In this document: piece after piece, positions 6,053 to 32,000 of the stretch
Numbering within the stretch: the first letter of the stretch is position 1
Layout of the letters: every line of letters begins with the position of its first letter
NCBI GenBank assembly: GCA_006739055.1
Contig: AP019702.1
Span: 2,535,388-2,567,387 of the forward strand
Origin: Stella vacuolata
GTDB lineage: Bacteria; Pseudomonadota; Alphaproteobacteria; ATCC43930; Allostellaceae
Direction: 5' to 3'
DNA length: 32,000 bases
Made by a program: the position numbers and the translations under genes
Notes under the pieces: model-generated
Database searches by the model: none
Seen by the model: only the letters and a program-made list of their open reading frames with translations
Told to the model about the DNA's origin: nothing

Positions 6053-6096
6053 CGCCGGCCGTCCCTGGTTGGAAGCCGGGACTGCCCATCGGTCGC

Positions 6097-6125
6097 AGCG
6101 TCCCTCGACTGCGCTCGGGATGAGG
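6097..6125 (+). repeat. REP-like intergenic repeat, copy 1 (AGCGTCCCTCGAC-TGC-GCTCGGGATGAGG)
   Basis: The 29-nt core is identical to copy 2 and to the reverse complement of copy 3 except for the central 3 nt. A more diverged ~20-nt tail (AACTCCTCAATTCGCACAAC) resembles the tail after copy 2. Confidence 0.8.
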
Positions 6126-6154
6126 AACTCCTCAATTCGCACAACTGCCTGCGT

Positions 6155-6183
6155 AGCGTCCCTCGACGGGGCTCGGGATGAGG
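6155..6183 (+). repeat. REP-like intergenic repeat, copy 2 (AGCGTCCCTCGAC-GGG-GCTCGGGATGAGG)
   Basis: Direct repeat of copy 1, 58 nt downstream. It can pair with inverted copy 3 to form a long stem. Confidence 0.8.
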
Positions 6184-8570: not shown

Positions 8571-9488
8571 TCACGGCGTGCCGCTGGACGCCAGCTCGGC
8601 CTTCACCTGGTTGAGGATGCGGTTGGCCTCGCTGCCCTGGATGCGGGCGATGTCGTCCTGGTACTTCAGCAGGGTGCCGAGCGTGTCGTTGACCGTGTCG
8701 CGGTCGAGCTCGAAGGCGTCGAGCTGCATCAGCGCATGGGTCCAGTCGATCGTCTCGGCGACGCCCGGCAGCTTGAACAGGTCCATCTTGCGCAGTTCCT
8801 GGACGAAGGAGACGACCTGCTTCGACAGGGCCGCGCCGGCCCCCGGGCAGCGCACCCGCAGGATCTCCATCTCGCGCTTCGCCGTCGGGTAGTCGACCCA
8901 GTAGTAGAAGCAGCGCCGCTTGAGGGCGTCGTGGATCTCGCGCGTGCGGTTGGAGGTGACGATGACGATGGGCGGGGCCGGCGCCTTGATGGTGCCGATC
9001 TCCGGGATCGTCACCTGGTAGTCGGACAGGACCTCCAGCAGGTAGGCCTCGAACGGCTCGTCGGTGCGGTCGAGCTCGTCGATCAGCAGCACCGGCGGGC
9101 CGGCCACGTCGGGCTCCAGCGCCTGGAGCAGGGGGCGGCGGATCAGGAAGCGGTCCGAGAAGATCTCGTCCTCGATCGAATCCCGTCCCGACCCGGTCGC
9201 CTCGCCGAGCCGGATCTCGATCATCTGGCGGGCATAGTTCCACTCGTAGACGGCCGAGGCGACGTCGAGCCCCTCGTAGCATTGCAGCCGGATCAGCTTG
9301 CGCCCCAGCGCCGACGACAGGACCTTGGCGATCTCCGTCTTGCCGACCCCGGCCTCGCCCTCCAGGAAGAGCGGCCGGCCGAGCGAAAGGGCCAGGTAGA
9401 CCGCGGTGGCGAGGCTGCGGTCGGCGACGTAGTTCGCCTGGCCCAGCAGGGCCAGCGTCTCGTCCACGGAGGCGGGAAGCGACGACAT
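8571..9488 (-). CDS. coxD: CoxD-like MoxR-family AAA+ ATPase
   Basis: 305 aa with Walker A 'LEGEAGVGKTEIAK', Walker B 'VLLIDELDR' and 'IVIVTSNRTREIHDALKRRC' (sensor/Arg-finger region). Confidence 0.9.
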   Translation of the reverse strand: MSSLPASVDETLALLGQANYVADRSLATAVYLALSLGRPLFLEGEAGVGKTEIAKVLSSALGRKLIRLQCYEGLDVASAVYEWNYARQMIEIRLGEATGSGRDSIEDEIFSDRFLIRRPLLQALEPDVAGPPVLLIDELDRTDEPFEAYLLEVLSDYQVTIPEIGTIKAPAPPIVIVTSNRTREIHDALKRRCFYYWVDYPTAKREMEILRVRCPGAGAALSKQVVSFVQELRKMDLFKLPGVAETIDWTHALMQLDAFELDRDTVNDTLGTLLKYQDDIARIQGSEANRILNQVKAELASSGTP

Positions 9489-9688: not shown

Positions 9689-11593
9689 ATGGCCGCCACG
9701 TTCAAGACCAACCCCTTCAGCCTGAACGAGCTTCTGCAGAATTGCGAGCGGGGCAGCCTCCAGTTGCCGGACTTCCAGCGCAGCTGGGTGTGGGACGAGG
9801 ATCGCATCAAGAGCCTGATTGCATCCGTGTCCCGTTCCTTCCCGATCGGGGCGTTGATGACGCTGGAGACGGGCGGGGCGGTCGATTTCCGGCCGCGCCC
9901 GGTCGAAGGGGCGCCCGAGGCCGCGAAGGCGCTGCGTCCGACGGCGCTGTTGCTGGACGGACAGCAGCGGATAACGTCGCTCTACCAGGTCGCCATGCGC
10001 GGCGACGTGGTGGAGACGATCACGCCGAAGAAGAAGCGGGTGCGCCGGTGGTTCTACGTCGACATCCGCAAGGCGGTGGATCCGAACGCCGACCGTGAGG
10101 ACGCCATCGTCTCGGTCCCCGAAGACAGGCGCATCACCGAGGAGTTCGGCCGCAATGTCGTTCTCGATCTGTCGTCGCGGGAGCTTGAGTTCGAAGCCCT
10201 GATGTATCCGATGTCGATGGTGTTCCGTTGGGACGACTGGATCATGGCGTTCACCGACCATATCCGCACCCGGGAGGATTTCCACGAGCAGTGGAAGACG
10301 ATCATGGAGTTCAAGAAGTCCGTGATCGACAGCTTCACCCACTATCAGGTGCCGGTCATCACCCTGACCGACGGCACATCCAAGGAGGCGGTCTGCACCG
10401 TGTTCGAGAAGGTGAACACGGGCGGCAAGCCGCTCGACGCCTTCGAGCTGGTGACCGCCATGTATGCGGCCGAGGGTCATGAGCTGCGCCGGGACTGGTA
10501 CGGCAAGGGTGGGGAGCGGGGCCGCCAGCACCGATTCGTCAATGCGTTGCGCCAGGCCGACGAGGAGGCGGGCATCCTGGCCGAGGTGTCCAATACCGAC
10601 TTCCTGCACGCCATCTCGCTCTTTCACACCCGCGAGATGCGCCGGTCGGCGGAAGCCGCCGGACGACAGGGGCGGGACCTGCCGGCTGTCTCCGGCAACC
10701 GGGCGGCGATCCTGAACCTGCCGCTCGACGCGTACCGGAAGTACGAGCGACAGGTCGAGGCCGGCTTCCTGCGGGCCGGCAAGTTCCTGCACACGCTCAA
10801 CGTCTACCGGGTGTTCGACCTGCCGTACCAGACGCAGGTCGTGGCCCTGGCAGCGATCCTGGCGGAGATCGGCGACGCCTGGGAACACGAAGCCAATCGT
10901 GCCCTGCTCGTGCGCTGGTACTGGAACGGCGTCTTTGGCGAACTCTACGGTTCCACCGTCGAGACCCGGATCGCCCGGGACTTCCTGGAGGTGCCGGCCT
11001 GGCTCGATGGCGGGCCGCTGCCCACCACCATCTTCGACGCCAACTTCCGGGCCGAACGGCTCGGCACCATGCGCATCCGGATATCGGCTGCCTACAAGGG
11101 CGTGAACGCGCTGCTGATGAAGGCGGGGGCGGAGGATTTTCGGTCCGGCCGGAAGTTCGACCATACGGTCTTCTTCGGCGAGAACGTCGACATCCACCAC
11201 ATCTTCCCCAGAAGCTGGTGCGAGGCGCGCGGGCTGAAGCCCAGCGTCTACGATTCCATCATCAACAAGACGCCGCTCGCCTATCGCACGAACCGGATCA
11301 TCGGCGGCGCGGCGCCGTCCGTCTACCTCGCCCAGCTGGAGGCCGGCAACGCGCGGACGCCGGCGATCTCCCGGGCCAATCTCGATCGCTATCTCGCCAG
11401 CCACCTGATCGATCCGGTCCTGCTACGGGCAGACGACTTCGACGCCTTCATGCGCGACCGGACGGCCCGTCTGCTGGCGCTGATCGAACAGGAGATGGGC
11501 AAGACGATCGACCGAGGCGTTGCGATCGAAGATGATGACGCCGAGACCGACTCCGAGACCGCCGAGGCGGCGCTGACCATGCTGGCGGCCTGA
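9689..11593 (+). CDS. GmrSD-like DUF262 + DUF1524 (His-Me finger) protein; candidate type IV (modification-dependent) restriction / defence nuclease
   Basis: 634 aa. The N-terminal DUF262/ParB-like NTPase motifs are 'LQLPDFQRSWVWDEDRI', 'LLLDGQQRITSL' (aa 88-99) and 'FEKVNTGGKPLDAFEL'. The C-terminal nuclease-like region has 'DIHHIFPRSW' (aa 501-510) followed by 'INKTPLAYRTNRIIG'. The long antisense ORF 9668..11404 is a shadow. Confidence 0.8.
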   Translation: MAATFKTNPFSLNELLQNCERGSLQLPDFQRSWVWDEDRIKSLIASVSRSFPIGALMTLETGGAVDFRPRPVEGAPEAAKALRPTALLLDGQQRITSLYQVAMRGDVVETITPKKKRVRRWFYVDIRKAVDPNADREDAIVSVPEDRRITEEFGRNVVLDLSSRELEFEALMYPMSMVFRWDDWIMAFTDHIRTREDFHEQWKTIMEFKKSVIDSFTHYQVPVITLTDGTSKEAVCTVFEKVNTGGKPLDAFELVTAMYAAEGHELRRDWYGKGGERGRQHRFVNALRQADEEAGILAEVSNTDFLHAISLFHTREMRRSAEAAGRQGRDLPAVSGNRAAILNLPLDAYRKYERQVEAGFLRAGKFLHTLNVYRVFDLPYQTQVVALAAILAEIGDAWEHEANRALLVRWYWNGVFGELYGSTVETRIARDFLEVPAWLDGGPLPTTIFDANFRAERLGTMRIRISAAYKGVNALLMKAGAEDFRSGRKFDHTVFFGENVDIHHIFPRSWCEARGLKPSVYDSIINKTPLAYRTNRIIGGAAPSVYLAQLEAGNARTPAISRANLDRYLASHLIDPVLLRADDFDAFMRDRTARLLALIEQEMGKTIDRGVAIEDDDAETDSETAEAALTMLAA

Positions 11594-27874: not shown

Positions 27875-28620
27875 CGGGGGCTTCCCAGGGTTTGCGGTTG
27901 CCAGGGCACGAGCCGGCGCAGGAGCGCGTCCAGCCCGTAGTAGAGCGCGATCGCCATGGCGGCCAGGACCACCAGGGCTGCGAACAGGAGGTCGATCTGC
28001 ATGCGCCCGTTGGCGTGCAGCATCAGGAATCCGAGGCCGGCGCCGCTGCCGACCCATTCGCCGATGACGGCGCCGATCGGCGCCACGGCGGCGGCGATGC
28101 GCAGGCCCTGGGCCAGGGCGGGCAGGGCGGCCGGGATGCGCAGGTGGCGCAGGATGGCGCCCTCGCGCGCACCCATCGTCCGGGCCAGCTCCATCCAGCC
28201 GGCGGGCGTGGTGCGCAGCCCGTCGAAGAAGGAGGCCGCGACCGGGAAGTAGATGACCAGCGCGGCCATGACGATCTTGGAGGCGAGGCCGTAGCCGAAC
28301 CACAGCACCAGCAGGGGCGCCAGGGCGAAGACGGGAACCGCCTGGCTGGCGATGACCACCGGCAGCAGCCAGCGCCGGGCGATCGACGAGCGCACCACCA
28401 GCAGCGCGGTGCCGACCCCCAGTACCACCCCGCACAGCAGCCCCAGCACGATCTCGGTCGCGGTGATCAGCGCGTGGTGGGCGAGCAGGTCGGCGCGCAC
28501 CCACAGGGCGACGGCGACCGCGCTCGGCGGCGGCAGGATGTAGGGGGGCAGCTCCAGCAGGCGGGCGGCGGCCTCCCAGACGGCGACCAGCCCGGCCGCG
28601 GTGATCAGGCCGCGATACAT
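27871..28620 (-). CDS. ABC transporter permease (NitT/TauT family, ThiX-like)
   Basis: 249 aa and hydrophobic, with the EAA-like loop 'ELARTMGAREGAILRHLRIPAALPAL'. Confidence 0.85.
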   Translation of the reverse strand: MYRGLITAAGLVAVWEAAARLLELPPYILPPPSAVAVALWVRADLLAHHALITATEIVLGLLCGVVLGVGTALLVVRSSIARRWLLPVVIASQAVPVFALAPLLVLWFGYGLASKIVMAALVIYFPVAASFFDGLRTTPAGWMELARTMGAREGAILRHLRIPAALPALAQGLRIAAAVAPIGAVIGEWVGSGAGLGFLMLHANGRMQIDLLFAALVVLAAMAIALYYGLDALLRRLVPWQPQTLGSPR

Positions 28621-28623
28621 CCC

Positions 28624-29361
28624 TCAGGCTCCATCTTCGGCCAGGCGGCGCAGCAGCTCGCCCTGGAGCGCCAGCACGCCCGGGTCGTCGACGGCGCGGA
28701 GCGGCGTGCCCGGCGGCAGGATCGGAGCGGACAGGCGGGCGGGACGGCCGGTCATGACGAAGACCCGGTGGCCGAGCCGGAGCGCCTCCAGCGGGTCGTG
28801 GGTGACCAGCAGCACGGTGCGGCCGGCCAGGCGTTCGGCCGCCAGGGTCTGCAGGCGCAGCCGGGTGACGGCGTCGACGGCGGCGAAGGGCTCGTCCATC
28901 AGGACGATGGGCCGGTCTTCCATCAGGGTGCGGGCCAGCGCGACCCGCTGGCGCATGCCGCCCGACAGGGCGGCGGGGCGCTGCCGGGCGGCGGCGGCGA
29001 GCCCCAGCTCCGCCAGGAGCGCCTCGGCCCGGCCATGGTCCGGGGGCTGGCCGCGCAGCCGCGCGCCGAGCAGGACATTGTCGCGGGCATCGAGCCAGGG
29101 CAGCAGCAGGTCCTGCTGCGCCATGAAGGCGACCCGGGCGGCGACCGGCCCGCCATCGCCCGCCGCGACCCCTCCGGCCCTGCTGCCCGGCACCAGCCCG
29201 GCCACCAGCCGCAGCAGAGTGGACTTGCCGACCCCGCTCGGGCCCAGCAGGCAGGTCCAGCGGCCGGCCTCGATGTCGAGGTCGAGATCGGCGAACAGCG
29301 CCCGGCCATCGAAGGCGACGCCGGCACGGTCGAGACGGATGGAGGGTGCGGAAACGGTCAA
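28624..29361 (-). CDS. ABC transporter ATP-binding protein (ThiZ-like)
   Basis: 245 aa with Walker A 'GPSGVGKST', signature 'LSGGMRQRVALARTL' and Walker B 'IVLMDEPF'. The only in-frame start near the N-terminus is TTG at 29361. Confidence 0.85.
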   Translation of the reverse strand: MTVSAPSIRLDRAGVAFDGRALFADLDLDIEAGRWTCLLGPSGVGKSTLLRLVAGLVPGSRAGGVAAGDGGPVAARVAFMAQQDLLLPWLDARDNVLLGARLRGQPPDHGRAEALLAELGLAAAARQRPAALSGGMRQRVALARTLMEDRPIVLMDEPFAAVDAVTRLRLQTLAAERLAGRTVLLVTHDPLEALRLGHRVFVMTGRPARLSAPILPPGTPLRAVDDPGVLALQGELLRRLAEDGA

Positions 29362-29371
29362 CGGGATACGA

Positions 29372-29475
29372 CGCCTCTCCCTTCGCCGGCATGACCCGGA
29401 TCAGGTTCAAGGGGTCGTTTCCCGCTGGTGGAAACCTCTCAGCCGGCCCCGGCCGGCTCCCCCGGGGATGAAGCG
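29372..29475 (-). promoter_or_regulatory. TPP (THI-box) riboswitch
   Basis: The minus-strand RNA reads CGCUUCAUCCCCGGGGGAGCCGGCCGGGGCCGGCUGAGAGGUUUCCACCAGCGGGAAACGACCCCUUGAACCUGAUCCGGGUCAUGCCGGCGAAGGGAGAGGCG. It contains the THI-box hallmarks GGGGAGC...CUGAGA...ACCC...ACCUGAUCCGGGUCAUGCCGGCGAAGGGA and a P1 helix CGCUUC/GAGGCG. It lies 10 nt upstream of the ABC ATPase start. Confidence 0.85.
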
Positions 29476-29478
29476 TTC

Positions 29479-29508
29479 AATATGGTGGCAACCGCGACGG
29501 CGATGCAA
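29479..29508 (-). promoter_or_regulatory. Tentative promoter of the thi ABC operon (TTGCAT-18 nt-CATATT)
   Basis: On the minus strand, -35 is at 29508..29503 and -10 at 29484..29479. The predicted start falls at the 5' end of riboswitch P1. The call rests on hexamer matching only. Confidence 0.35.
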
Positions 29509-29539
29509 GTATCCGCGGCCGGGGCGTGCGGGACGACGG

Positions 29540-30514
29540 TCAGCGGGTCGCCAGTGCGACGATGTCGTCGAGCGTGCCGCGGCCGAGATGGGCATCCATG
29601 ACCGCCGTCTCGGGCGTCTCGCCATAGGCGGCTGCCAGGCGGTGTCGGTGGGATTCGAGGGCCGCGATCGACCGGCCCATCAGGTCGCAGCCGGCCACCG
29701 GGTCGAGGAACGCCCCGGCCAGCGTCCGCACCGGGCCCCGGCCGGACTCGGCCAGGATGTAGCCGGCCGGCGCCGGCCCGGCCATGGAGGGAGTGGCGTC
29801 CCGCGGCGCGGTCACCGTTGCCGCGGTCAGCACCAGCGTGCCCAGGGCGGCCCGGGCCAGGGCTTCGTCGCCCGCCAGGTTGCTGATCAGCCGGCCGCGG
29901 TCGATGCAGAGATAGAGATAGTAGAGCGCGCCATCGATCCCGGGCGCGCCGTCGCCGGACCCATTGACCTCCGGGGGCGAGCCATGGGTGGTGATGGCAT
30001 GGGCCACCTGGACCGCGGCCTCGCGATCGAACCCGGCCAGGCCCGGCAGGGCGCGGCCGAAGAGCGCGATGTCGACCGCATCGTCGGCGTGGCGCAGCAG
30101 CTCTCCCGGCGCGGCCGTCACGGCTTCGCCGGCGGCAATGCGGCGGGCCAGCGCCAGGGCGAGGCGCTGTTCCGCCGGCGCCAGCAGGGCCCGGTCGGCC
30201 TGGAAGCCGGCGGGCAGCGCGAACTGGGCCGCGACCGCCGCCGCCGCCGCGCGCGCCGCGGGCTCCGGCACGGCTTCGGCCATCAGCCGGCTGCCGATCG
30301 CCGGGACCAGTTCCAGGACCGGCCGCGACAGATGACCCGCCAGCGTGGTGGCGAAGACGGGCGAGGCGCACCAGGCGCGCACCAGCGACTGGGACGAGAT
30401 GCGCCGGCGCGGGTGATTGCCGAAGATGGCGGTCTTGGGCCGGCCGGCCGCGTCCCGCTCGGGCGCGGACGGCGGATAGGCAACCAGGAGATGGAGCTGG
30501 AGCAGGGGGATCAT
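29540..30514 (-). CDS. Cas7e (CasC/Cse4, Cas_CT1975 family)-like RAMP protein, orphan (no other cas genes or array nearby)
   Basis: 324 aa, with RBS GAAGGA 4 nt upstream of ATG 30514. Its blocks match E. coli CasC as I remember it. 'LHLLVAYPPSAPERDAAGRPKTAIFGNHPRRRISSQSLVRAW' matches '[42 protein letters not shown]'. 'VDIALFGR', 'VAHAITTH' and 'GALYYLY' match 'VDIALSGR', 'IAHAITTH' and 'GVFYRY'. Confidence 0.7.
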   Translation of the reverse strand: MIPLLQLHLLVAYPPSAPERDAAGRPKTAIFGNHPRRRISSQSLVRAWCASPVFATTLAGHLSRPVLELVPAIGSRLMAEAVPEPAARAAAAAVAAQFALPAGFQADRALLAPAEQRLALALARRIAAGEAVTAAPGELLRHADDAVDIALFGRALPGLAGFDREAAVQVAHAITTHGSPPEVNGSGDGAPGIDGALYYLYLCIDRGRLISNLAGDEALARAALGTLVLTAATVTAPRDATPSMAGPAPAGYILAESGRGPVRTLAGAFLDPVAGCDLMGRSIAALESHRHRLAAAYGETPETAVMDAHLGRGTLDDIVALATR

Positions 30515-30866
30515 GATGTCCTTCGGGCCGCTGCCATCGTGGAAGGGCGGGATGCGGGCCGCCCGGGCCAGGCTGCATCCTATGGAATAGACCTAGATTT
30601 CACCATCTGACAATTCGTCCGGTGGTTGTGCGATCCCGGAGGGCGGATGCCTTCACCCAGGCTTCGCAGCAGGTGCGCTCTTCTTCCCAGGGTTGAGCGC
30701 GCATCCAGCCGTCATGGAGCCGCTGCTCGCCCATGACGTGTCGTTCCAGCCGGCCGCGCGGCCCGGCGCCTATCGCGCGATGTGCCCCCTGCCGGCGCCG
30801 GCTGGCGGTGCCGAGTCCGGGTGCTTGACACGCACGGGGCGGCGGCCCCGAATGCCGGCGATCGCA

Positions 30867-30896
30867 CCGACTGCGGCGGCCAGCCGCCGCAGTCGG
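30867..30896. repeat. Perfect 13-bp GC-rich inverted repeat with 4-nt loop (CCGACTGCGGCGG-CCAG-CCGCCGCAGTCGG)
   Basis: Read directly from the sequence. It lies in the 453-bp spacer between the Cas7e-like gene and the STAS-kinase gene, ~70 nt upstream of the latter's ATG. There is no flanking U-tract on either strand. Confidence 0.6.
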
Positions 30897-30967
30897 CGCC
30901 TGGCGATTTCGACCCAACAGGATGGACCGGCCGCAGGCGTCGGCCATGGAACGGAGACGGCCAGGCC

Positions 30968-32000
30968 ATGCTCATCAATGCCCAGCGTGCGGACGACCGG
31001 CTGACCCTGGCCCTGGACGGCCGGCTCGACATCGCCACGGCGCCGGTCCTGGCGCGGGAACTCGCGCTGGAGGGGGTCCGGCACCTCGTCCTGGACTTCG
31101 ATCGCTGCCCCTACATCTCCAGCGCCGGGCTGCGGGAGCTTCTGCGCGCGCAGAAGCAGCTGACGGCGGCGGGCGGCACGATGCTGCTGACCAACGTGCC
31201 GCGCGAGGTGCAGGAGGTGCTGGACATGACCGGCCTCTCCAGCCTGATCCCGAGCCGGGGCAAGGTGCGGCAGATCTCCATCGACGGGCTGGAGTTCCTG
31301 TCCGCCGGGGTCTGCGGCGAATGCTATCGCCTCGACGAGGAGACGATCGTCAAGCTCTACAACGAGGGGGTGGAGCCGGCGATCGCCGAGAAGGAGAAGG
31401 CGTTCGCCAAGGCGGCCTTCGTGCTGGGGATACCCACCGCCATCTCCTACGACGTCGTCGCCTGCGGCAGCCGCACCGGCGTCGTCTACGAGATGCTGGA
31501 CGCGACCCTGTTCAGCGCGGTCATCCGCAACGATCTGGCCGCCATCGACCGGCACGCCGAGCGGCTGGCTCGGATCACCCAGGCCGTCCACGACACGAAG
31601 GCGGATCCCGGCATCTTCCCGGACATCAAGGAGAGCTTCCGGTCCTACATCGACCAGATGGCCTTCTTCCTGTCGGCGGAGGAGATCGGGTTCCTGCAGC
31701 GCAAGCTGGACGCGATCCCCGATGCCGATACCTGCGTGCATTTCGACCTGCACACCAGCAACATCATGATCCGCGCGGGCGAGCCGGTGATCATCGACAT
31801 GGGCGACCTGTCGCGCGGCCACTACCTGTTCGACGTCGGCCTCCTGTGCACCATCTACGGCTATCCGGAGCTGGGCATCAGCGAGCTGGCGACGAAGATC
31901 CCGGGCGAGGACGGCGCCCGCCTGCTGGAGGGTTTCCTGAAGGCCTATTTCGCCGACAAGCCGGAGGAGGAATACCGGCTGTTCGAGGAGAACCGCCACT
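30968..32000 (+). CDS. STAS (anti-sigma-factor-antagonist-like) domain fused to an APH/choline-kinase-fold phosphotransferase (partial; 3' end outside window)
   Basis: Not in the ORF track (no stop in the window); I translated it from ATG 30968 (GGAG 11 nt upstream). The STAS part reads MLINAQRADDRLTLALDGRLDIATAPVLARELALEGVRHLVLDFDRCPYISSAGLRELLRAQKQL...LLTNVPREVQEVLDMTGL. The kinase part has 'VVYEMLD', the Brenner motif 'VHFDLHTSNIMI' and 'VIIDMGDLSRG'. Antisense ORF 30770..31999 is a shadow. Confidence 0.75.
   Translation, partial: MLINAQRADDRLTLALDGRLDIATAPVLARELALEGVRHLVLDFDRCPYISSAGLRELLRAQKQLTAAGGTMLLTNVPREVQEVLDMTGLSSLIPSRGKVRQISIDGLEFLSAGVCGECYRLDEETIVKLYNEGVEPAIAEKEKAFAKAAFVLGIPTAISYDVVACGSRTGVVYEMLDATLFSAVIRNDLAAIDRHAERLARITQAVHDTKADPGIFPDIKESFRSYIDQMAFFLSAEEIGFLQRKLDAIPDADTCVHFDLHTSNIMIRAGEPVIIDMGDLSRGHYLFDVGLLCTIYGYPELGISELATKIPGEDGARLLEGFLKAYFADKPEEEYRLFEENRH

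Follow-up and report, generated by a model that had tools for sequence, protein, structure and literature searches.

What does a single gene of CRISPR interference do when it stands alone, far from its operon? This question is raised by a 32,000-nt stretch of the chromosome of Allostella (Stella) vacuolata (GenBank contig AP019702.1, positions 2,535,388 to 2,567,387), which is called the window below and in which positions are counted. On its (-) strand, at 29540-30514, lies a Cas7e-like open reading frame (ORF) of 324 amino acids, hereafter the solo gene, found exactly where an earlier note, made from the sequence alone, had placed it. In canonical Cascade, six Cas7e copies polymerise on the CRISPR RNA (crRNA). 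The product of the solo gene has lost much of what this polymerisation needs, and the gene nevertheless bears the marks of purifying selection. In our opinion, it is probably a maintained, non-canonical derivative of Cas7e with some selected function.

Is it a Cas7e at all? The ORF is uninterrupted and identical to BBK42365.1, an Allostella vacuolata protein with the annotation type I-E Cas7/Cse4/CasC, and all the motifs by which it had been recognised (AIFG...RRRISSQSL, VDIALFGR, VAHAITTH and GALYYLY) are present. The proposed check against the Pfam profile PF09344 (Cas_CT1975) gave a clear match, split in two stretches, of 150.3 bits against a gathering score of 26 (E=1.3e-43), and three PADLOC models of Cas7e match the protein at about 1e-41 to 1e-43. 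With TIGR01869 of NCBIfam, named in the same proposal, the solo protein reaches 145.5 bits and stays under the curated cutoff of 178.05. The close likeness to E. coli CasC holds as homology, the predicted model being superposable over the full length, whereas similarity at the level of sequence is confined to residues 4-59 (E=1e-10). The AlphaFold2 (AF2) model of the solo protein (predicted local distance difference test score, pLDDT, 85.4; predicted template modelling score, pTM, 0.85) has the right-hand fold with a palm of the RNA recognition motif (RRM) type and helical fingers, the model being driven by the family alignment, and a Foldseek comparison superposes it on Cas7e of E. coli Cascade (4qyz_H) along the whole length with E=6e-20 and a TM score of 0.76. 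Judging by a sequence similarity far beyond chance, the ORF is a genuine homologue of Cas7e. It departs from the canonical protein in four hallmarks, namely the thumb, the residues K45 and M166, the operon context and the TIGR01869 cutoff.

The absence of a cas operon, asserted earlier, is true of the window only. A complete type I-E operon (cas3-cse1-cse2-cas7-cas5-cas6e-cas1-cas2) is carried by the same 5.83-Mb replicon of A. vacuolata, and at the end of the operon contig stands a typical I-E repeat, the first of the array. The Cas7e of this operon (BBK42274.1, P0002 below) has the normal length of 346 amino acids and is 51% identical to the solo protein by BLASTP, or 56% over the aligned columns. 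Since the operon owns an intact cas7e, the solo gene is an extra paralogue, not a relocated subunit, and the case envisaged earlier, of an I-E locus lacking only cas7, does not apply. The accession numbers of BBK42365.1 and BBK42274.1 are 91 apart, so the two genes are probably separated by about 90 genes. On the operon contig (L009), an ORF of 283 amino acids without a Pfam match (357-1208) stands immediately upstream of cas3 and could be a cas-associated gene.

The origin of the paralogue can be read from its relatives. In a neighbour-joining tree the solo protein is the sister of the operon copies of the Stella clade (P0002-P0004), with a branch length of 0.60 vs 0.13-0.16 for these copies, and eight sites group the operon copies as a clade without the solo protein. 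All the close relatives examined sit in cas operons, and nucleotide similarity to the operon cas7 genes stops at the limits of the ORF. On this evidence, the solo gene derives from an operon cas7e of the Stella/Allostella clade.

How far has it moved from this origin? In an alignment of the solo protein with its 119 best relatives (120 sequences), 33 of the 102 columns of at least 98% conservation differ in the solo protein; among the other sequences the median number of such differences is 0 and the highest 7, and the operon copy has 0. The solo protein is the most aberrant of the 120. Residues were mapped through E. coli CasC, whose sequence was validated against 4qyz_D, and domain limits and contact residues were taken from PMC5965380 and PMC4787809. 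Kept are K27, S40, Q42, R36, R38 and R46, so that the crRNA-backbone contacts K27, S40 and Q42 are intact together with the RISSQS helix; the strands around AHAITTH and YLYLCID are also retained, with the palm/RRM core. Four residues are replaced (K45V, R49C, R65P and M166A), each at a site invariant in 118-119 of the 119 relatives and, for K45 and M166, in all 119. M166 is the wedge of Cas7e that intercalates in the guide (PMC5965380).

The largest change concerns the thumb. In E. coli Cas7e, the thumb hairpin (residues 190-223) clamps every sixth crRNA base, which is kinked, and bridges to the fingers of the neighbouring subunit, whereas the thumb of Cas7.1 docks Cas6e, to which W199, F200 and V203 bind (PMC5965380). 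When the solo protein is aligned with E. coli CasC and with the operon copies, its truncated thumb falls at residues 176-197 (29924-29989, (-) strand). Right after AHAITTH, a deletion of 15 residues has removed the first thumb strand and the tip helix (the VEDDYYTAVDDL block of the relatives), together with the equivalents of W199, F200 and V203. The equivalent of the target-contacting H213 was lost by a separate deletion of one residue, and that of L214 is D188. The thumb thus counts 22 residues, where the E. coli protein has 34 and P0002 and the nearest relatives have 38, and the earlier estimate of a thumb about a dozen residues shorter than that of CasC proves right (12 shorter). At residues 183-189 of the solo protein the AF2 model has a pLDDT below 50. 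The motifs NLNRDD, RTQR, FGK and GKQxS are likewise altered, the GKQ loop being lost, and a single lysine is left vs 8-15 or more across the family. No second thumb-less Cas7e came to light when 1.84 billion cluster representatives were searched exhaustively with phmmer; the nearest match has 47% identity, and all the full-length matches are 15-30 residues longer over the same span. Among 5.8 billion proteins, no relative above 56% identity was found besides the orthologue described below.

From these losses we infer that the solo protein cannot serve as a regular polymerising backbone subunit. It might still be thought to work in the backbone of the resident Cascade, be it as a relocated subunit or as a second isoform of Cas7e, as the score above the Pfam threshold, the predicted Cas7e fold and the presence of a resident I-E system would allow. 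This is highly improbable in view of the intact canonical cas7e in the operon, the loss of the thumb strand and tip, of the M166 wedge and of K45, the score below the TIGR01869 cutoff and the extreme position of the protein among its relatives at invariant positions.

The change was fast, and it was a change of the protein. Tajima relative-rate tests counted 78 vs 20 and 96 vs 16 amino-acid changes, more on the side of the solo protein (p=5e-9 and 4e-14), and synonymous third positions are balanced (24 vs 23), which places the acceleration in protein evolution and not in the mutation rate. Compared with the operon copies, the amino-acid sequence of the solo protein has changed 4-6 times faster. 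The 96 solo-specific replacements have a mean BLOSUM62 score of -0.53, as compared with -0.72 to -0.79 for simulated random mutation and +0.26 for the operon copies, and the constraints of canonical Cas7e are lifted at many positions. Codon identity between the solo gene and the operon copies at conserved residues is near the expectation from codon usage. Compensated frameshifts were considered as a source of the divergent blocks and rejected, tblastn with the operon Cas7e giving one high-scoring segment pair in one frame over 1-346; each of the four indels that set the gene apart from the operon copies has a length divisible by three, and no frameshift scar was seen. An NG86 three-taxon estimate of the ratio of nonsynonymous to synonymous substitution rates (dN/dS, ω) of about 0.9 on the solo branch was also tried as a sign of near-neutral decay. 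Its absolute value was dropped because the synonymous sites of the paralogues are saturated (dS of 1.2-7.5 by maximum likelihood, ML), and only the relative acceleration was kept.

Does selection still act on such a gene? An initial view that it has no orthologue anywhere was overturned when the 90% cluster of the solo protein turned out to have a second member, P0361. It is encoded on a 4.8-kb metagenome contig (L023, ERZ27315062) from a close relative of A. vacuolata, and the same sample also yielded a contig with a STAS-kinase gene 94% identical to that of A. vacuolata. P0361 likewise counts 324 amino acids and has the same thumb deletion and the same V45, C49, P65 and A155, with both the K45 and the M166 replacement present; between the two there is no indel and no stop, and the gene of P0361 also stands just upstream of a riboswitch and an ATP-binding cassette (ABC) operon. 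For this pair, NG86 gave dN=0.058, dS=0.190 and ω=0.305 (bootstrap confidence interval 0.20-0.45), while other methods gave ω of 0.28 (LWL85), 0.13 (YN00) and 0.14 (ML). The excess of synonymous differences between the two copies is significant (binomial p=2.7e-7), and identity by codon position is 0.94/0.95/0.85. An ω of 0.13-0.31 between orthologues, together with an intact frame of the same length, means that the solo gene is under purifying selection now. The proposal of the earlier note that it is a maintained gene and not a fresh fragment of a decaying locus is thereby supported.

The distribution of the differences is uneven. Of the family-invariant residues kept by the solo protein, 3 of 85 differ in the pair, vs 6 of 37 at the sites where the invariant residue was lost (p=0.02); the thumb remnant, which differs at 8 of 22 positions, is the most variable part, and the kept core is the most conserved. 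As a separate observation, the segment coding for the thumb remnant (29924-29989) is a hot spot, in comparison with L023, at nonsynonymous and synonymous sites alike, the local NG86 dS being 0.92 vs 0.16 elsewhere. Small compensating indels or a recombination patch could be reflected here.

The main competitor of a maintained gene is a slowly decaying, functionless relic of a duplicated or second I-E locus, in which the sub-neutral ω would come from recent loss of function or from selection against a toxic misfolding product. One third of the family-invariant residues are lost, by radical replacements, and the composition has drifted with GC pressure; the branch ω of about 0.9 against the operon copies, the very narrow distribution with a strain (ATCC 35155) lacking the gene, and the fact that isolated cas remnants are common (PMC5294841) fit a relic as well. 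The open frame, too, is only modestly surprising. Offered earlier as evidence of maintenance, the frame is indeed intact, but this carries little weight alone in DNA of 73% G+C: 16% of arbitrary reading windows of 975 nt are open here, and two longer spurious ORFs overlap the solo gene (28601-30610(+), 669 amino acids, and 29439-30578(-), 379 amino acids in another frame), so that an open frame means little, and in neutral simulation the frame stays open in 3-32% of runs. A relic is nevertheless unlikely. The orthologue ω has an upper limit of 0.45 and goes with the synonymous excess, neither copy has an indel or a stop, the four older indels are in frame, the residues of the kept core are preferentially conserved, the Shine-Dalgarno (SD) site and the 5' flank are conserved, and the branch value of 0.9 is unreliable owing to saturation. 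The usual marks of a pseudogene are absent, there being no frameshift or premature stop with respect to the family and a pair ω that is not about 1.

Several points weigh against a maintained, functional gene and should be kept in view. The ω of the solo gene is about three times that of the neighbouring STAS-kinase and ATPase; the control values are 0.02-0.12 for the STAS-kinase, 0.15-0.33 for GFA and 0.05-0.08 for the ATPase. Selection was measured on one short branch, with two sequences of one narrow lineage and a dS of about 0.19-0.36. In the relative's copy one more invariant residue is gone (R20L), and Y13C is another difference; this could point to erosion that is still going on. In how radical they are, the solo-specific replacements come close to random mutation, and the protein has the highest GARP and the lowest FYMINK amino-acid content of the 120 sequences, a drift along GC pressure. 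Finally, the AF2 model, being built from the family alignment, cannot prove that the fold is truly kept.

What surrounds the gene? Searched by tblastn with all eight operon proteins, the window contains no cas gene except cas7, in agreement with the earlier note, as it contains no CRISPR array; no copy of the resident I-E repeat was found in it within three mismatches, and no remnants of cse2 or cas5 were found in the flanks of the solo gene. Its codon style is that of its neighbours, as had been noticed, with a G+C content by codon position of 0.785/0.575/0.905. The plausible ribosome-binding site is the SD-like GAAGGA at 30519-30524, within a 5' flank of 188 nt (30515-30702, (-) strand) that is about 90% identical to that of the relative's copy. 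This flank also holds promoter-like hexamers, TTGTCA (30608-30613) and CTATTC (30585-30590), with a 17-nt spacer, and the block at 30585-30613 is near-perfectly conserved in both lineages (GATGGTGAAATyTAGGTCTATTCCATAGGATGC). In the relative, the -35-like hexamer is TTGGCG, unlike TTGTCA. A generic scan for sigma-70 promoters and terminators reported no site, so that the hexamers of the 5' flank are no more than a putative promoter. RNA folding of the transcript was uninformative.

On the other side, a spacer of 66 nt (29474-29539, (-) strand) without a terminator-like site separates the stop codon of the solo gene from a thiamine pyrophosphate (TPP) riboswitch at 29361-29473 (-), identified with Rfam RF00059 at 69.7 bits; the hexamers TTGCAT/CATATT in this spacer are conserved in the relative. 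The riboswitch, predicted in the earlier note, is a neighbour and not a part of the element, and it heads the thiamine-type ABC operon (ATPase, permease and NMT1-THI5 binding protein) that had likewise been described there. Besides it, an Rfam search of 29300-31000 at a permissive threshold returned a sub-threshold match to the signal recognition particle RNA inside the ORF and nothing else. In the ABC ATPase, at about 29170-29185, comparison with L023 revealed an in-frame indel of two codons in a Gly/Ala-rich loop (SRAGGV vs SGGV).

This setting bears on the possibility that the solo protein was domesticated outside CRISPR, its palm binding cellular RNA as a monomer or another oligomer without a link to Cascade. 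Such a role would agree with the purifying selection on the gene, with the survival of the RISSQS helix and of K27, S40 and Q42 as palm contacts, and with the place of the gene amid housekeeping genes, far from the cas operon. The location would also suit it, the gene standing in both lineages immediately upstream of the TPP-riboswitch operon and no terminator separating the two, and filaments of Cas7-family proteins of type IV-B on non-CRISPR RNA are known (PMC7937560). However, no conserved partner gene accompanies the solo gene, and several features of RNA contact are gone (K45, the M166 wedge, the thumb and nearly all the lysines), R20 moreover differing between the two copies. The adjacency to the riboswitch operon may only reflect the insertion site, because just two genomes have it and ATCC 35155 possesses the operon without the gene. 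An RNA-binding protein of this kind is, in our view, rather improbable.

Where does the solo gene occur? It is confined to one narrow lineage, with two known members. Collinearity of the window with the genome of Allostella sp. ATCC 35155 extends over 8.95 kb (82% at the nucleotide level) and ends at 29467 inside the riboswitch; 117 nt beyond the break comes a divergent GFA gene, and cas7 is missing from the site. In Stella humosa, the STAS-kinase gene lies in another context, with no cas7 beside it. The description of the gene as long-resident is thus valid within the narrow lineage, but not beyond it.

The upstream side has its own history. A divergent gene for a STAS+APH kinase does stand upstream of the solo gene, as first described, and its candidacy as a conserved neighbour fails: in the relative, the divergent upstream neighbour of the solo gene encodes a haem peroxidase, and the kinase locus is separate from the solo-gene locus. 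The latter fact corrected a first impression that the relative lacks the solo gene. An 80-nt remnant of the haem-peroxidase gene is still found at 30715-30794 (strand not assigned; blastn aligns L023 2857-2934 with 30794-30715 at 86%), and homology to the STAS-kinase block of contig L011 begins at about 30804. These alignments indicate a deletion or rearrangement in A. vacuolata that swapped the peroxidase for the STAS-kinase block. The pair of STAS-APH kinase and GFA genes (L010 3962-5697 / L011 867-2600) is itself 94% identical in A. vacuolata and the metagenome relative, but on neither side are the genes next to it related between the two, so that either the pair moved or its surroundings were reshuffled.

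A synteny break of this kind could betray an anti-CRISPR (Acr) derived from a Cas protein and left by an integrated phage or plasmid, the more so as Acr activity is known for homologues of Cascade subunits and orphan viral cas genes number in the hundreds (bioRxiv 10.1101/2023.06.24.545427). Other observations speak against it. No integrase, transposase, phage or plasmid gene was found near the solo gene, whose flanks are housekeeping ones; its codon style is that of the host; around the lineage-specific segment only short GC-rich matches at chance level were found as terminal direct or inverted repeats; and no phage, plasmid or IMG/VR relatives were found beyond ordinary operon cas7e. An origin from a mobile element is therefore very unlikely.

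Two further features of the window lie apart from the solo gene. The segment 8000-13000 has a G+C content of 0.65-0.69 vs 0.72-0.79 around it, and its genes (8571-9488(-) and 9689-11593(+)) encode an AAA_5 ATPase and a GmrSD_N/DUF262 protein; it resembles a small type IV restriction/defence islet and is unrelated to cas7. Between MobA-like and XdhC genes, a 32-nt direct repeat occurs in two copies (6094-6125 and 6152-6183), 91% identical and 58 nt apart.

What, then, might a Cas7e that does not polymerise be kept for? By analogy with known Acrs, the single most likely mechanism, held tentatively and with somewhat less than even confidence, is that of a mimic of Cas7e acting on the resident Cascade or its crRNA. 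The solo protein would no longer build the helical backbone, while its palm would still dock onto crRNA or a neighbouring Cas7e; once docked, it would cap, shorten or poison the resident Cascade, and interference would be dampened or tuned. A precedent exists in type I-B, where AcrIB3 and AcrIB4 have been shown by experiment to join a defective Cascade (bioRxiv 10.1101/2023.06.24.545427). Against the mechanism it must be said that it is pure inference and that the solo gene, unlike the known Cas-derived anti-CRISPRs, neither adjoins a cas operon nor sits on a recognisable mobile element or anti-defence locus. A role linked to Cascade seems at least as likely as an RNA-binding role outside CRISPR. 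That one of these two holds, so that the remodelled and selected Cas7e is either a self-encoded subunit mimic tuning Cascade or an RNA-binding protein of the Cas7 fold outside CRISPR, we regard as an even call.

The comparison with known systems helps to define what is peculiar here. With canonical Cas7e (E. coli CasC, 4QYZ/4TVX; BBK42274.1), the solo protein shares full-length homology, 51-56% identity to the operon copies of the Stella clade, and the palm core. The canonical gene sits between cse2 and cas5 in the I-E operon, whereas the solo gene has no operon, and its product differs by the thumb of 22 vs 38 residues, the replaced residues, the lost GKQ loop, the single lysine and an evolution 4-6 times faster. 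AcrIB3, a homologue of Cas5, AcrIB4, a homologue of the C-terminal part of Cas8b, and the orphan viral cas genes (Katz et al.; bioRxiv 10.1101/2023.06.24.545427) are similar in being divergent, solitary homologues of Cascade subunits, apart from the cas operon and beside a complete system, and the proposed faulty-subunit mode would be the same. They belong, however, to type I-B and are located on prophages or viral contigs in anti-defence loci, whereas the solo gene encodes a Cas7 of type I-E and has a chromosomal housekeeping context.

Isolated and partial cas loci (Zhang & Ye 2017, PMC5294841) also include cas genes away from an array or a complete locus, but they comprise three or more cas genes and are mostly read as remnants or as acting with remote arrays, unlike the one remodelled and selected gene considered here. 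Recruitment of Cas7 from canonical interference is seen in the I-E cas5-cas6-cas7-cas8 module with a STAND NTPase of Streptomyces and in HRAMP (PMC8730458), as well as, for a Cas7-family protein, in the Csf2 filaments of type IV-B (PMC7937560). All of these keep partner subunits (Cas5 and others) in a conserved module, and the solo gene has neither nearby. A stand-alone Cas7e with evidence of maintenance was not found in the literature searched, including the reviews PMC8730458 and PMC12669027.

A cas gene found astray is commonly written off as debris. In the present case, the parts for polymerisation have been stripped away, yet the gene is under purifying selection, a combination whose weight is limited by the two known members and the one narrow lineage. 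If true, either role would make this the first functional stand-alone Cas7e. Should the solo protein act on the resident Cascade, regulators of CRISPR immunity of the faulty-subunit kind would be evolving in host chromosomes and not in phages alone; should it act elsewhere, nature would here have put a minimal Cas7 palm to new use as a module for RNA binding.

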